A stretch of DNA of 64,000 nt from a virus. Its lineage: Duplodnaviria; Caudoviricetes. The stretch is taken from IMG/VR virus record IMGVR_UViG_3300022848_000005; one strand, given 5' to 3'. Under the pieces are notes generated by a model that was given only the letters and a program-made list of their open reading frames with translations, was not told the origin of the DNA and made no database searches. Both the position numbers and the translations under genes were made by a program. Position 1 is the first letter of the stretch; the number at the start of each line of letters is the position of its first letter. Below are positions 9,105 through 43,904 of the stretch, piece by piece.

Positions 9105-9371
9105 ATGTTCAAGATTACTGATATTAGTGTGAAAAATTTTATGAGCGTTGGAAACAGCACTCAGGGTATTCGGTTTGACAGAAATGACCTAACACTTGTA
9201 CTGGGGCAGAATTTAGACCTAGGTGGTGATGACACAGGCGCACGTAATGGTACAGGCAAGTGTCTTTGTATAAATACATTAGTAAAAGTTCGAAATACAG
9301 AAACCGGCGAAGTAACAGAACTTACTATGGGAGAATTGTATAATGCCGCGGTGGGACAACAGCCTAAATGA
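9105..9371 (+). CDS. gp46: gp46 (SbcC/Rad50-like ATPase) N-extein of 52 aa fused to a split-intein N-fragment
   Basis: KNFMSVGN...LTLVLGQN...GARNGTGK Walker A motif, broken after Lys and continuing as CLCINTLVKV (intein block A). Confidence 0.9.
   Translation: MFKITDISVKNFMSVGNSTQGIRFDRNDLTLVLGQNLDLGGDDTGARNGTGKCLCINTLVKVRNTETGEVTELTMGELYNAAVGQQPK
9261..9368 (+). mobile_element. Split intein N-fragment, 36 aa
   Basis: Cys1 codon TGT at 9261; CLCINTLVKVRNTETGEVTELTMGELYNAAVGQQPK then a stop codon. Confidence 0.85.
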
Positions 9372-21708: not shown

Positions 21709-22893
21709 ATGTCAGATAATTTACTAGAAGGCCGTTGGGGTGAGACCAAAGAAGCTCTGTTAGAAGGTTTACAAGGTTCCCGCCGTACAACAATGTCTTC
21801 CATATTGGAAAACACAAGAAAGCACTTAGCAGAATCCGCCACTGGCGGTGCAACAACTAGTGGTAACGTTGCAACTCTTAACCGAGTTATTCTTCCCGTA
21901 ATTAGACGAGTTATGCCAACTGTTATTGCCAACGAAATTGTTGGAGTACAGCCAATGACTGGTCCAGTTGCACAGATTCACACATTACGTGTGCGTTACG
22001 CTGAAACAGCAACATCTACAGCAAGTGCACCGTTTAATACAAACACAACATCAGGTGACGAAGCACTTTCACCATTCAAAATTGCCACAGCATACTCTGG
22101 TTCAACATCAACTGGTCGTGCAGACAGCACAGCATCATTTGAAGGTTCACCAGGACGTAAGATCAACGTTCAGATCTTAAAGCAAGTTGTTGAAGCTAAA
22201 ACACGTAAGCTATCAGCTCGTTGGACATTTGAAGCCGCACAAGACGCACAGTCAATGCACGGTTTAGATGTTGAAGCAGAGATTATGGCTGCATTAGCTC
22301 AAGAGATCACTGTTGAAATTGACCAGGAAGTACTTGGTTCTTTACGTAGCCTTGCGGCAACTGAAGAAACATACAACCAGGCAGCAGTATCTGGTACAGC
22401 TACTTACGTTGGTGACGAGCATGCCGCATTGGCAGTTCTTATCAACAGAACAGCAAACAAGATTGCACAAAGAACAAGACGTGGTGCAGGTAACTGGGCA
22501 GTTGTTTCCCCAGCCGCACTAACAGTTTTACAGAGTGCAACAACATCAGCTTTCGCACGGACAACTGAAGGCACATTTGAAGCACCTACAAACACTAAGT
22601 TTGTTGGTACACTAAATGGCGCAATGAAAGTTTATGTTGATAGCTATGCAAGTGACTCAACCGCAGTTCTAGTTGGTTATAAGGGTTCAAGCGAGGCAGA
22701 TGCCGCGGCTTTCTATTGCCCATATATTCCATTAATGAGCAGTGGAGTTGTTCTTGATCCAGCAACGTTTGAGCCAGTAGTTGGCTTTATGACTCGCTAC
22801 GGATACGTAGAGCTCACAAATTCCGCTTCATCGCTCGGTAACGCCGGCGATTATCTGGGTGAAATTGCCATAAGCAATTTGTCCTTCTCATAA
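21709..22893 (+). CDS. gp23: Major capsid protein
   Basis: RRVMPTVIANEIVGVQPMTGP, VEAKTRKLSARWTFEAAQD, TRRGAGNW, FYCPYIPL and FMTRYG motifs. Confidence 0.97.
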   Translation: MSDNLLEGRWGETKEALLEGLQGSRRTTMSSILENTRKHLAESATGGATTSGNVATLNRVILPVIRRVMPTVIANEIVGVQPMTGPVAQIHTLRVRYAETATSTASAPFNTNTTSGDEALSPFKIATAYSGSTSTGRADSTASFEGSPGRKINVQILKQVVEAKTRKLSARWTFEAAQDAQSMHGLDVEAEIMAALAQEITVEIDQEVLGSLRSLAATEETYNQAAVSGTATYVGDEHAALAVLINRTANKIAQRTRRGAGNWAVVSPAALTVLQSATTSAFARTTEGTFEAPTNTKFVGTLNGAMKVYVDSYASDSTAVLVGYKGSSEADAAAFYCPYIPLMSSGVVLDPATFEPVVGFMTRYGYVELTNSASSLGNAGDYLGEIAISNLSFS

Positions 22894-22945
22894 TTGTAGA
22901 AGTCAAAACGCAACAAAAAATTCCTGTTCGGAATGGGATACAAGG

Positions 22946-22969
22946 AAGGGGTCGCAAGGCCCCTTTTTT
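22946..22969 (+). terminator. Intrinsic terminator after gp23
   Basis: AAGGGGTC-GCAA-GGCCCCTT followed by a T run. Confidence 0.85.
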
Positions 22970-22977
22970 GTGGCTAA

Positions 22978-23121
22978 AAGAAGCAGTCAGCAGAAACCAT
23001 CGCTAAAAAAGCAGAATTATTGCGTGGACAGCCCAGAGAGAAACGTTATTGTCAACATTGTGACAGGCAGATCTCACTTGGTTGGTACAATAGACACAGT
23101 GACAACTGTAAGTCAAAATAA
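22978..23121 (+). pseudogene. 3' remnant of a homing endonuclease gene
   Basis: Start-less frame KKQSAETIAKKAELLRGQPREKRYCQHCDRQISLGWYNRHSDNCKSK*, resembling a NUMOD3-like repeat plus a CxxC..H..C zinc tail; preceded by an in-frame TAA. Confidence 0.6.
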
Positions 23122-23122
23122 C

Positions 23123-23153
23123 TTGACTTAACTCCCGACTTACTGTATAAATA
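23123..23153 (+). promoter_or_regulatory. Overlapping sigma70-like and T4-late promoter driving the riboswitch leader
   Basis: TTGACT, 17-nt spacer, TATAAA; the same -10 extends to TATAAATA. Confidence 0.65.
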
Positions 23154-23159
23154 TATATA

Positions 23160-23210
23160 CGTTCAGGCAATAGCCCGGAAGTAGACTTTACTATTAGTCG
23201 AAGGAACGCA
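23160..23210 (+). promoter_or_regulatory. Glutamine riboswitch aptamer 1 (glnA class)
   Basis: CGTTC-[GGC AATA GCC]-CGGAAGTAG-[ACT..AGT]-CGAAGGAACGC: three-way junction with the E-loop consensus. Confidence 0.8.
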
Positions 23211-23215
23211 TTATC

Positions 23216-23267
23216 ATCGTTCATCTCAAAAGAGACGGAAGTAGGTAATGGTTACCGAAGGAACGCA
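23216..23267 (+). promoter_or_regulatory. Glutamine riboswitch aptamer 2 (glnA class)
   Basis: ATCGTTC-[TCTC AAAA GAGA]-CGGAAGTAG-[GTAA TGG TTAC]-CGAAGGAACGC. Confidence 0.85.
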
Positions 23268-23294
23268 CCTAACTGTAAGAAGGAGGGTGTTGAC

Positions 23295-23396
23295 ATGACA
23301 TTGTGGACTCGATATTGTAGAGCTCATGCACAACAAGACTATCATAAGGCTTGTATGCTTAAATTGTTTCTGTTACGTGCATTTGTACACTACTAA
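23295..23396 (+). CDS. 33-aa small protein downstream of the riboswitch
   Basis: AGGAGG at 23281-23286, then MTLWTRYCRAHAQQDYHKACMLKLFLLRAFVHY*, then a terminator. It is below the ORF-track length cutoff. Confidence 0.7.
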   Translation: MTLWTRYCRAHAQQDYHKACMLKLFLLRAFVHY

Positions 23397-23413
23397 TAAG
23401 TAAGCATCAATTT

Positions 23414-23440
23414 AAGGGATCGAAATTTGATCCCTTTCTT
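23414..23440 (+). terminator. Intrinsic terminator after the small ORF
   Basis: AAGGGATCGA-AAT-TTGATCCCTT followed by TCTT. Confidence 0.7.
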
Positions 23441-23577
23441 ATGGCTTCATAATCTATAAATACTACTGTTCAGTAGTTAGGTAAACAGGAAAATTTTTCC
23501 TGTCCAAACTGACTTATGCTGTTCCCACAGCGTAGCGACTAGAACTCGCATTGGACTTCTTAACAAGGAGAAAACAA

Positions 23578-24012
23578 ATGGGAAGACCTATTAAAACTGC
23601 CGAATCAGTTGGCGGCAATCTTAAAGTAGCATCAGCATCAACAGCATTACCAATTGGTTCAAATGCTCTAAGTGGCAATCAAATAGTTATGAAAGCATAC
23701 ATTACAGGCGGTAGTGTTCAAGACACAACACTAGTTCTACAAAAAGGAACAAAGAAATTCCGTTGTACAAATAGTGATGGAACCGAGTCTCTGCAATTAA
23801 CATCAGTAGTGCATGGTTCATTAGCACAAGGACAATGTCAGATTACTGGTACAGATAGTGCCGGTGGTACTTACTTTGCAAGTAAAATTACAGGACGTCA
23901 TTTTCATGTAGGCAATCTTGGAACAGGATCACAATTTGCAGTTGGTGATAAGGCTTTATTAGTCGCATCAGGACCAGAAGCAAATGTAAGTGTTTCAGTA
24001 CCGAACAGTTAA
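23578..24012 (+). CDS. Hypothetical virion (head decoration-like) protein
   Basis: ATG after AAGGAG (MGRPIKTAES...), downstream of a late-promoter motif. Confidence 0.55.
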   Translation: MGRPIKTAESVGGNLKVASASTALPIGSNALSGNQIVMKAYITGGSVQDTTLVLQKGTKKFRCTNSDGTESLQLTSVVHGSLAQGQCQITGTDSAGGTYFASKITGRHFHVGNLGTGSQFAVGDKALLVASGPEANVSVSVPNS

Positions 24013-42402: not shown

Positions 42403-42471
42403 ATGCCTAAAATTGCCGACTTAGAAGTTACCCCAAATCCAAACGCTAGGAAATTTGTACTTATATTATGA
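42403..42471 (+). pseudogene. 22-codon duplicate of the nfu 5' end, with its stop overlapping the sufB start (ATGA)
   Basis: [22 protein letters not shown]; 55 of 60 nt identical to 43990-44049. Confidence 0.85.
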
Positions 42472-43904
42472 ATACAGCAATTGATAACATTGTGAATCAG
42501 CCGTACAAGGCTGGATTCCACACCGAAATCGAGACGGATTCAATGGCTCGTGGTTTGAGCGAAGATGTTATTCGAACGATATCGAGCAAGAAGAATGAGC
42601 CAGATTGGTTGTTAGAGTTTCGTCTTAATGCTTACCGTCATTGGTTGACGATGACAGAGCCAAAATGGCCAAACGTGAGATATCCAAAAATTGATTTTCA
42701 GGACATAATTTATTATTCGGCACCGAAGTCTAAGGCGACCAAGAAGTCCATGGATGAGGTCGATCCAGAGTTATTGAAAACTTTTGAGAAGCTTGGTATT
42801 CCTATGAATGAGCGTGCGGCTTTGGCAGGCGTTGCTGTGGATGTTGTTTTTGATAGTGTTTCTGTAACGACCACCTATAAAGAAAAGTTAGCGGAATACG
42901 GGATCATATTTTGCTCGTTCTCGGAGGCGGTCAGAGACCATCCAGATCTGATTAAGAAGTACCTTGGCAGCGTTGTTCCTTATACCGATAATTTTTATTC
43001 TGCATTAAATTCAGCGGTTTTTACGGACGGTTCGTTTTGTTACATCCCCAAAGGTGTGAAGTGTCCGATGGATCTGTCGACTTACTTTCGCATCAATACT
43101 CAGGACTCGGGTCAGTTTGAAAGGACTCTGATTGTCGCAGAAGAGGGCAGTCAGGTGTGTTACCTAGAGGGTTGCACCGCACCTCAATTTGACACGAATC
43201 AATTGCATGCGGCGGTGGTTGAGCTCATTGCTCTTGATGATGCGGATATTAAGTATTCCACTGTGCAAAATTGGTATGCCGGAGATGAAAATGGCGTTGG
43301 TGGTATCTTTAATTTTGTGACTAAGCGAGGATTGTGCAAAGGTAAAAACTCCAAGATATCTTGGACCCAAGTGGAGACTGGATCAGCGGTGACTTGGAAA
43401 TACCCCTCGTGTATTCTTCTTGGCGATAATTCGGTGGGTGAGTTTTACTCCGTAGCGCTTACTAATCACATGCAACAAGCGGACACTGGAACAAAGATGT
43501 TCCATATTGGCAAGAATACCCGCAGCCGCATTATCAGTAAGGGTATTTCAGCGGGAAAATCTAATAATAGTTATCGTGGTTTGGTGAAGGTGTCACCTAA
43601 AGCCGATGGCGCTCGTAACTATTCTCAATGCGACTCTATGTTGATTGGCGATCTTTGTGGTGCCAATACATTCCCTTACATCGAGGTCGCCAACAAGAGC
43701 TCGATCGTAGAGCATGAGGCAAGCACATCAAAAATTGGTGAAGAGCAGATGTTTTATTTTTCGAGTCGAGGTATCGGTTCTGAAGAAGCTGTTTCTATGA
43801 TTATTAATGGATTCGTTAGAGATGTATTTATGCACTTGCCCATGGAGTTCGCGGTCGAGGCAACAAAATTACTCGGCTTAAAACTGGAAGGAAGTGTTGG
43901 ATGA
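42468..43904 (+). CDS. sufB: Fe-S cluster assembly scaffold SufB
   Basis: Full length: [57 protein letters not shown], ending KLEGSVG. Confidence 0.97.

Follow-up and report, generated by a model that had tools for sequence, protein, structure and literature searches.

The aptamer class of the glutamine riboswitches and its occurrence in tandem copies have both been published (Weinberg 2010, PMC2864571), as have, for cyanobacteria, an ON-switch model and the tie to small inhibitors of glutamine synthetase (GS) (Klahn et al. 2018, PMC6212724). In Synechocystis, production of the GS inhibitor IF17 is activated by a type-1 switch (PMC6212724), cyanobacteria having no GS adenylylation and using IF7/IF17 instead (PMC6316151, PMC6212724). 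In marine picocyanobacteria, the downstream-peptide/type-2 riboswitch lies directly before a very short open reading frame (ORF), e.g., the 33 codons of Yfr6 in Prochlorococcus, the product of which is thought to function in nitrogen control (PMC2864571, PMC6212724). Glutamine switches have further been reported in aquatic T4-like myoviruses, namely in T4-like cyanophages, e.g., S-CREM1 (PMC9964418, PMC9602691), and in Melnitz and the pelagimyophages (PMC9004378). None of these phage reports identifies a small protein under the control of the switch, that of Melnitz being described within the ssrA region, and the authors of the Melnitz study remark that its host OM43 is without such switches and without glnA (PMC9004378). 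The statement made in an earlier note on the present DNA that no phage system of this sort had been described therefore does not stand, both in view of this literature and because tandem glutamine aptamers occur in at least 117 IMG/VR contigs.

The locus considered here, situated in a window of 64,000 nucleotides (i.e., the whole stretch of DNA analysed), belongs to a known kind of system, the novelty residing in the output protein and in the setting of phage and host. With the gifB leader of Synechocystis (PMC6212724), it shares (i) the aptamer class RF01739, (ii) the design proposed for both, where the tail following P1 occludes the ribosome site by pairing and glutamine sets this site free, (iii) an output consisting of a small basic protein (IF17 in the case of gifB), and (iv) an organism without GS adenylylation. 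It differs from gifB in that two aptamers are present instead of one, in that the peptide is 33 aa long and unrelated in sequence to IF17/DUF4278 (149 aa), and in that it is found in a phage and in heterotrophic Burkholderiales rather than in cyanobacteria. The position directly before a very short ORF is common to the picocyanobacterial type-2 switch, whereas the aptamer class is RF01704 there and RF01739 here, the peptide belongs to DUF4278 there and shows no match to it here, and the host phylum is another one. Compared with the switches of cyanophages and Melnitz, the regulated gene is in the present case defined, conserved and common to the chromosome of the probable host clade. In the literature searched, the peptide family, the Burkholderiales switch, the GlnE pattern and the post-capsid position presented below were not found.

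The window comes from a large myovirus related to T4 and represents its structural region (Table 1); the capsid protein shares 64-68% identity with its counterparts in jumbo phages, e.g., PA5oct, GAP32 and Phosso. The DNA of the window recurs in 18 salt-lake metagenome runs, and no tRNA genes were found in the window. The earlier note had recognised a self-contained cassette composed of a promoter, a tandem riboswitch, a 33-aa ORF and a terminator, which lies downstream of the major capsid gene; every one of these parts could be located and the ends of the unit bounded, and the coordinates of the note all proved correct.

Table 1. Features of the cassette and of its surroundings, in positions of the window.
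Feature	Position	Strand	Evidence
Portal	17232		
Prohead protease	19947		
phrog_10922	20580		
Major capsid protein	21709-22893		
Terminator hairpin of the major capsid gene	22940-22971	+	-21.4 kcal/mol, z -4.7, then U run
Cassette promoter: -35 TTGACT (23123-23128), 17-nt spacer, TATAAATA (23146-23153)	23123-23153	+	Sequence and conservation
Glutamine riboswitch aptamer 1 (type 1, glnA class)	23158-23212	+	RF01739, 48.4 bits, E 1.5e-7
3' tail of aptamer 1 and linker, CAUUAUC, candidate strand of an alternative helix	23209-23215	+	Fold and covariation
Glutamine riboswitch aptamer 2 (type 1, glnA class)	23216-23269	+	RF01739, 61.9 bits, E 2.9e-11
GGUAAUG, P3 5' strand and loop of aptamer 2, candidate partner of the aptamer 1 tail	23244-23250	+	Fold and covariation
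Expression platform hairpin: aptamer 2 tail GCACCU (23265-23270) with GGGUGU (23285-23290)	23265-23290	+	-10.7 kcal/mol, z -2.8
Gene for a 33-aa basic, predicted all-helical protein, unannotated family, motif W-T-x-Y-C-R	23295-23396	+	ORF and conservation
Intrinsic terminator ending the cassette	23414-23436	+	-12.3 kcal/mol, z -3.0, then UUUCUU

The earlier note had described two adjacent aptamers with differing P2 and P3 stems that each still pair, and had proposed a check against the Rfam glnA covariance model. With cmscan, two matches to RF01739 were obtained, both above the gathering score of 35 and both full length (model positions 1-53), with 3 nt between them. According to the model alignment, P1 (CGUUC/GAACG) and the conserved strands of the three-stem junction, namely CGGAAGUAG and CGAAGGAACGCA, are present in both aptamers. 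P2 and P3 read GGC/GCC and GAC/GUC in aptamer 1, and UCUC/GAGA and GGU/ACC in aptamer 2, i.e., sequences unlike those of the former with pairing intact in each. Among relatives, P2 of aptamer 1 exhibits the compensatory variants GGC/GCC, GCC/GGC and UCC/GGA, and aptamer 2 shows almost no variation among phage and Burkholderiales copies, as does the linker to the start codon among the phage contigs. With two complete aptamers of the same class in one leader, the architecture is that of a tandem riboswitch.

The Shine-Dalgarno sequence AAGGAGG (23280-23286) sits inside the hairpin formed with the tail of aptamer 2 and reaches into its stem, the ATG being located at 23295. The pairing of this tail with the segment overlapping the Shine-Dalgarno sequence, as had been put forward from the window's sequence, agrees in its coordinates and covaries across peptide families: in 39 unique linkers, taken from viral contigs that have a tandem switch and different peptide families downstream, 17 compensating stem types were counted, e.g., CACCU/GGGUG, CAUCU/GGAUG, CACUU/GAGUG, CAAUCUU/GAGAUUG and CAUUUUCC/GGAGAAUG, and the mean stem length amounts to 5.7 bp versus 3.7 bp in chimeras. 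This covariation demonstrates the pairing of the tail with the ribosome-binding site in the expression platform. Since the same design has been proposed for the gifB leader of Synechocystis (PMC6212724), the unit is read as a translational ON switch, and we infer the direction of switching from that analogy. The transcript would begin at about 23158-23161 from a promoter near the sigma-70 consensus, in which the late word of T4, TATAAATA, is present as well, and the RNA leader would consist of the two type-1 glutamine aptamers in tandem. At low glutamine, CACCU in the tail of aptamer 2 would pair with GGGUG and the Shine-Dalgarno sequence would be hidden; once glutamine is bound, the tail would be held in the aptamer fold, and the Shine-Dalgarno sequence thereby freed for translation. 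Marine metatranscriptome contigs of relatives cover 23196-23291 with 3 differences, such libraries being liable to contain DNA and therefore not counted as proof of expression.

Aptamer 1 may exert the same kind of gating on aptamer 2, since P3 of the latter offers a pairing partner to the tail of aptamer 1. The minimum free energy structure of 23200-23262 contains the helix between these two strands (-16.4 kcal/mol, z -3.25). Among 34 unique tandems, an A at position 5 of the tail faces a U in 15/15 cases, and a G at this position faces a C in 6/7 cases and a U in the remaining one; in L087 and L109, the first pair is swapped from C1-G to U1-A. The helix is missing from several families. Compared with chimeras, its length is 5.3 versus 4.9 bp, which is a weak control as most sequences have identical strands in this helix, so that only the specific compensating changes speak for it. 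A relay helix between the aptamers is thus offered as a hypothesis; if it is real, the folding of aptamer 2 would need glutamine on aptamer 1, from which a sharper, i.e., steeper, response would result.

The promoter and the terminators were assigned from sequence, folds and conservation; a simple promoter/terminator scan had missed both terminators as well as the promoter of the cassette, for which it demands a T at position 6. The element TATAAATA at 23146-23153 can be read both as a sigma-70 -10 box (TATAAA) and as the late-promoter word of T4. In phage relatives, the -35 and -10 elements are kept with a variable spacer; most phage copies use TTGACT-17-TATAAATA, and the Burkholderiales copies use TTGACA-17 with a varied -10. 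Upstream, the cassette is bounded by the terminator of the capsid gene, which in the closest relatives adjoins the -35 element directly. Downstream, relatives likewise end the cassette with a hairpin and a U run, the stem sequence being another one (GGGGC..GCCCC). As such, sitting between the terminator of the capsid gene and the TATAAATA proper to the next gene (23455), the cassette is self-contained.

Of the four copies of TATAAATA in the window, all on the + strand, at least three are upstream of called genes, with no overall enrichment of the word in the window (4 found versus 5.5 expected). The words at 17200, 21673, 23146 and 23455 stand 24-115 nt upstream of genes, a copy of TATAAATA at 9269 stands 66 nt ahead of the ORF starting at 9343, and TATAAATT precedes the capsid gene on the + strand. 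The four TATAAATA together with TATAAATT may be late promoters of the phage.

Two neighbouring segments deserve description in their own right. The stretch of about 150 nt that separates the terminator of the capsid gene from the promoter of the cassette (22972-23121) is missing in the closest relatives (L089, L111 and L171); this segment contains a 33-codon ORF (23020-23121) with a CxxC...HxxxC pattern resembling a zinc ribbon, possibly the remnant of a gene. After the cassette, an Rfam freshwater-2 RNA (RF02980, 64.7 bits) is located within 23455-23580, between the TATAAATA at 23455 and the start codon of the gene 23578-24012, of which it spans both the Shine-Dalgarno sequence and the ATG. 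The same RNA occurs in relatives (L002, L010, L015, L019 and L020), mostly immediately after the capsid gene or the cassette. From its location in the window and in these relatives, the freshwater-2 RNA is here a phage 5' leader of the gene following the capsid gene or the cassette.

The small ORF itself is retained in 20 distinct coding sequences from phages and bacteria, in frame and with 33-37 codons. Synonymous differences are proportionally more frequent than non-synonymous ones (pS > pN) in 66/66 pairs, with a dN/dS of 0.1-0.76 where computable, and seven residues, namely M1, W4, Y7, C8, R9, A12 and R28, are invariant across 16 sequences. The small basic peptide posited in the earlier note is thereby upheld as translated and conserved. 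As for the emphasis that the note laid on Cys and His, of these residues only C8 is kept and it is replaced in more distant relatives, which makes the emphasis weak and indicates that cysteine chemistry is not essential. AlphaFold2 run with the family alignment predicts a single helix over residues 3-32 (pLDDT 90). A profile search of 1.84 billion representative proteins returned only 14 clusters; Pfam and PHROGs hold no family for the peptide, and the ESM Atlas gave no usable match. For DUF4278 (PF14105), no Pfam match to the peptide was seen even at E 10, while the same run did recover a DUF4278 peptide of phage origin (L096) at 37.5 bits. Against GenBank phages, tblastn found no matches to the peptide or to a peptide of the MTKYQ family described below, and BLAST found no match to the cassette or to a second cassette from L095, a method ill-suited to 50-nt aptamers, so that absence from isolates is not implied. 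Of note, one 72-aa protein of the representative library (P0001) is made up of the peptide family in duplicate, joined head to tail. On the strength of its conservation, the 33-codon ORF is taken to be a genuine gene, belonging to a family without annotation.

A pattern scan for the peptide in one genome per species revealed it in five Burkholderiales contigs, i.e., the SAG AH-141-I18, the MAG TMED22 and three other MAGs. In 5/5 of these contigs, a tandem RF01739 lies immediately upstream, and it is the sole glutamine switch of each genome (1.2-2.1 Mb). The neighbours of the bacterial cassette are cellular, encoding a thioesterase, a PNPOx-like protein, an RraA-like protein, an MFS transporter and a TonB receptor, with nitrogen genes not among them. 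Phage contamination of the bacterial bins was ruled out by these cellular neighbours, by the synteny upstream of the cassette across genomes, and by a search for a phage capsid gene in the peptide-bearing Burkholderiales genomes, where none was found. The unit of switch and peptide is present in 8/29 genomes of the GTDB family and in 2/151 genomes sampled from the order.

Between phage and Burkholderiales copies, the RNA from the P1 3' strand of aptamer 1 to the ribosome site (23200-23291) is 95-97% identical, the coding sequence 60-66% and the promoter about 30%, the phage peptide being 45-55% identical to the host copies. With its homologue in a chromosomal, cellular context, the cassette qualifies as a host-derived auxiliary gene of the phage or as a unit common to phage and host. 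The same phage also has a host-like sufB (42468-43904), the product of which is 94-99% identical to SufB of the cassette-bearing Burkholderiales clade and 79-91% identical to that of the rest of the family, a closeness that points to a very recent capture. From this identity, the small-genome Burkholderiales clade bearing the cassette appears as the likely host, and the phage most likely infects it. Cyanophage psbA is likewise a host-like gene retained by the phage, plausibly so that a process of the host stays controlled while infection proceeds; where psbA encodes an enzyme, however, the captured unit would here be a regulatory RNA plus a mini-protein, and the peptide, unlike the RNA, is far diverged from the host copies. 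Taken as a whole, a stand-alone phage transcription unit made of a glutamine ON switch and a helical mini-protein, either taken from the host lineage or common to it, is the reading that we regard as probable.

In phages, a search for the aptamer-peptide pair, which had been suggested in the earlier note, showed that more than 20 IMG/VR contigs have a conserved copy of the cassette, and, where the capsid gene is present, the capsid protein is 83-95% identical to that of the window. The cassette is missing from 18 other close relatives, several of which have the freshwater-2 RNA right after the capsid gene instead; absent from many related phages, it must be dispensable. Most contigs with a tandem switch carry a Shine-Dalgarno sequence and an ORF of 32-65 codons 18-31 nt downstream, the ORFs falling into several families including DUF4278. 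In 42/42 tandem-switch loci with a capsid gene in the examined DNA, this gene is upstream and on the same strand, and in 39/42 the tandem switch begins no more than about 460 nt past its end. The post-capsid position spans capsid lineages 31-41%, 69-74% and 83-95% identical to the capsid protein of the window. Among loci L081-L197, the slot defined by capsid gene and switch harbours at least six unrelated peptide families, i.e., MTKYQ..NPFYP, MLWLHTIE, MNRFDHLH, MNYRDFE, MTYRPYQW and DUF4278, and the locus of the MTKYQ peptide has the order gp21, scaffold, gp23, peptide, tube-like protein, UvsY, ThyX and UvsW.

Placed under such a switch, the peptide would be an effector of glutamine status. 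GlnE is the adenylyltransferase turning GS off in response to glutamine. A GlnE gene was detected in 0/8 of the riboswitch-bearing genomes versus 18/21 of the others of the GTDB family, which corresponds to an uncorrected hypergeometric probability of about 4e-5; by SufB identity, though, the eight genomes form one clade, so that the pattern may go back to a single evolutionary event. The genomes surveyed are incomplete MAGs and SAGs, and three of them lack both the riboswitch and GlnE. GlnD and a single GS-I gene are each present in 7/8 riboswitch-bearing genomes, the missing one being a different incomplete genome in each case. Beyond this family, a gammaproteobacterial genome with 36% GC (G216, from a class-wide sample of 401; loci L257 and L256) has one tandem switch directly before glnA and a second one ahead of a basic peptide of 43 aa, the latter switch being provided with an anti-Shine-Dalgarno helix of its own; no match to GlnE was found in this assembly of only 0.9 Mb.

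With the host clade devoid of GlnE, GS is the preferred target, and the peptide could, by analogy with the cyanobacterial IF7/IF17, inhibit the GS of the host, a proposal we hold tentatively. An analogue of the GS inactivating factors had also been considered in the earlier note, and the chromosomal occurrence of the peptide family in the GlnE-less likely host clade lends this idea indirect support. About equally likely is a target other than GS in nitrogen metabolism, e.g., PII/GlnK, NtrB, an ammonium channel or GOGAT, or else a process of the phage that should be tuned to the supply of amino acids, such as capsid synthesis. Such a target would accord with the lack of sequence likeness between the peptide and IF7/IF17 or DUF4278, with the presence of GlnD, hence probably of PII signalling, in the host clade, and with the tight placement of the unit after the capsid gene noted above, which would fit a link with late protein synthesis; yet the only lineage-specific loss found to accompany the cassette is that of GlnE, the modifier of GS, the same switch type also precedes glnA in the gammaproteobacterial genome, and the one output characterised for this class of switch inhibits GS (PMC6212724). 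A membrane-active or lysis-timing factor, by which high glutamine late in infection would trigger or delay lysis, is improbable: the C-terminal half of the peptide is hydrophobic (LKLFLLRAF) and the authors of the Melnitz study suggested that its glutamine switch bears on when lysis occurs (PMC9004378), but the hydrophobic run, of about 10 residues and interrupted by K and R, is too short to span a membrane, and in free-living bacteria, where the family is a single-copy chromosomal gene, a role in lysis is unlikely. Least credible of all, the short ORF would not encode a functional protein, being translated as a by-product or acting as a leader, and the unit would be a glutamine-sensing regulatory RNA, for which the far better conservation of the RNA than of the coding part and the lack of a known family could be invoked, against the excess of pS in every pair, the length and frame kept over 20 distinct sequences, the seven invariant residues, the invariant Shine-Dalgarno sequence and ATG, and a terminator directly after the ORF that leaves no downstream gene to lead into.

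Returning to inhibition of GS by the peptide, a broader scheme can be drawn, which is more doubtful than the inhibition itself. In heterotrophic Proteobacteria without GlnE, glutamine riboswitches would drive lineage-specific GS-inactivating mini-proteins, convergent with IF7/IF17, and the phages of these bacteria would carry post-capsid copies of them for nitrogen control late in infection, with a relay between the two aptamers. The phage's own copy would sustain glutamine-dependent control after host transcription fails, in keeping with the role commonly ascribed to auxiliary genes.

Control of GS by small proteins under a glutamine riboswitch has until now been treated as a cyanobacterial speciality. 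The same RNA class is here found to drive an unrelated protein of 33-37 residues in streamlined, GlnE-less Burkholderiales and in phages most likely infecting them. For the glutamine switches of phages, this provides a defined output gene, which the published phage reports had left open, together with a gene order, i.e., capsid gene, tandem switch and mini-protein, that recurs across widely differing T4-like phages, and, for a large and uncultured phage of salt-lake metagenomes, a likely host assignment.
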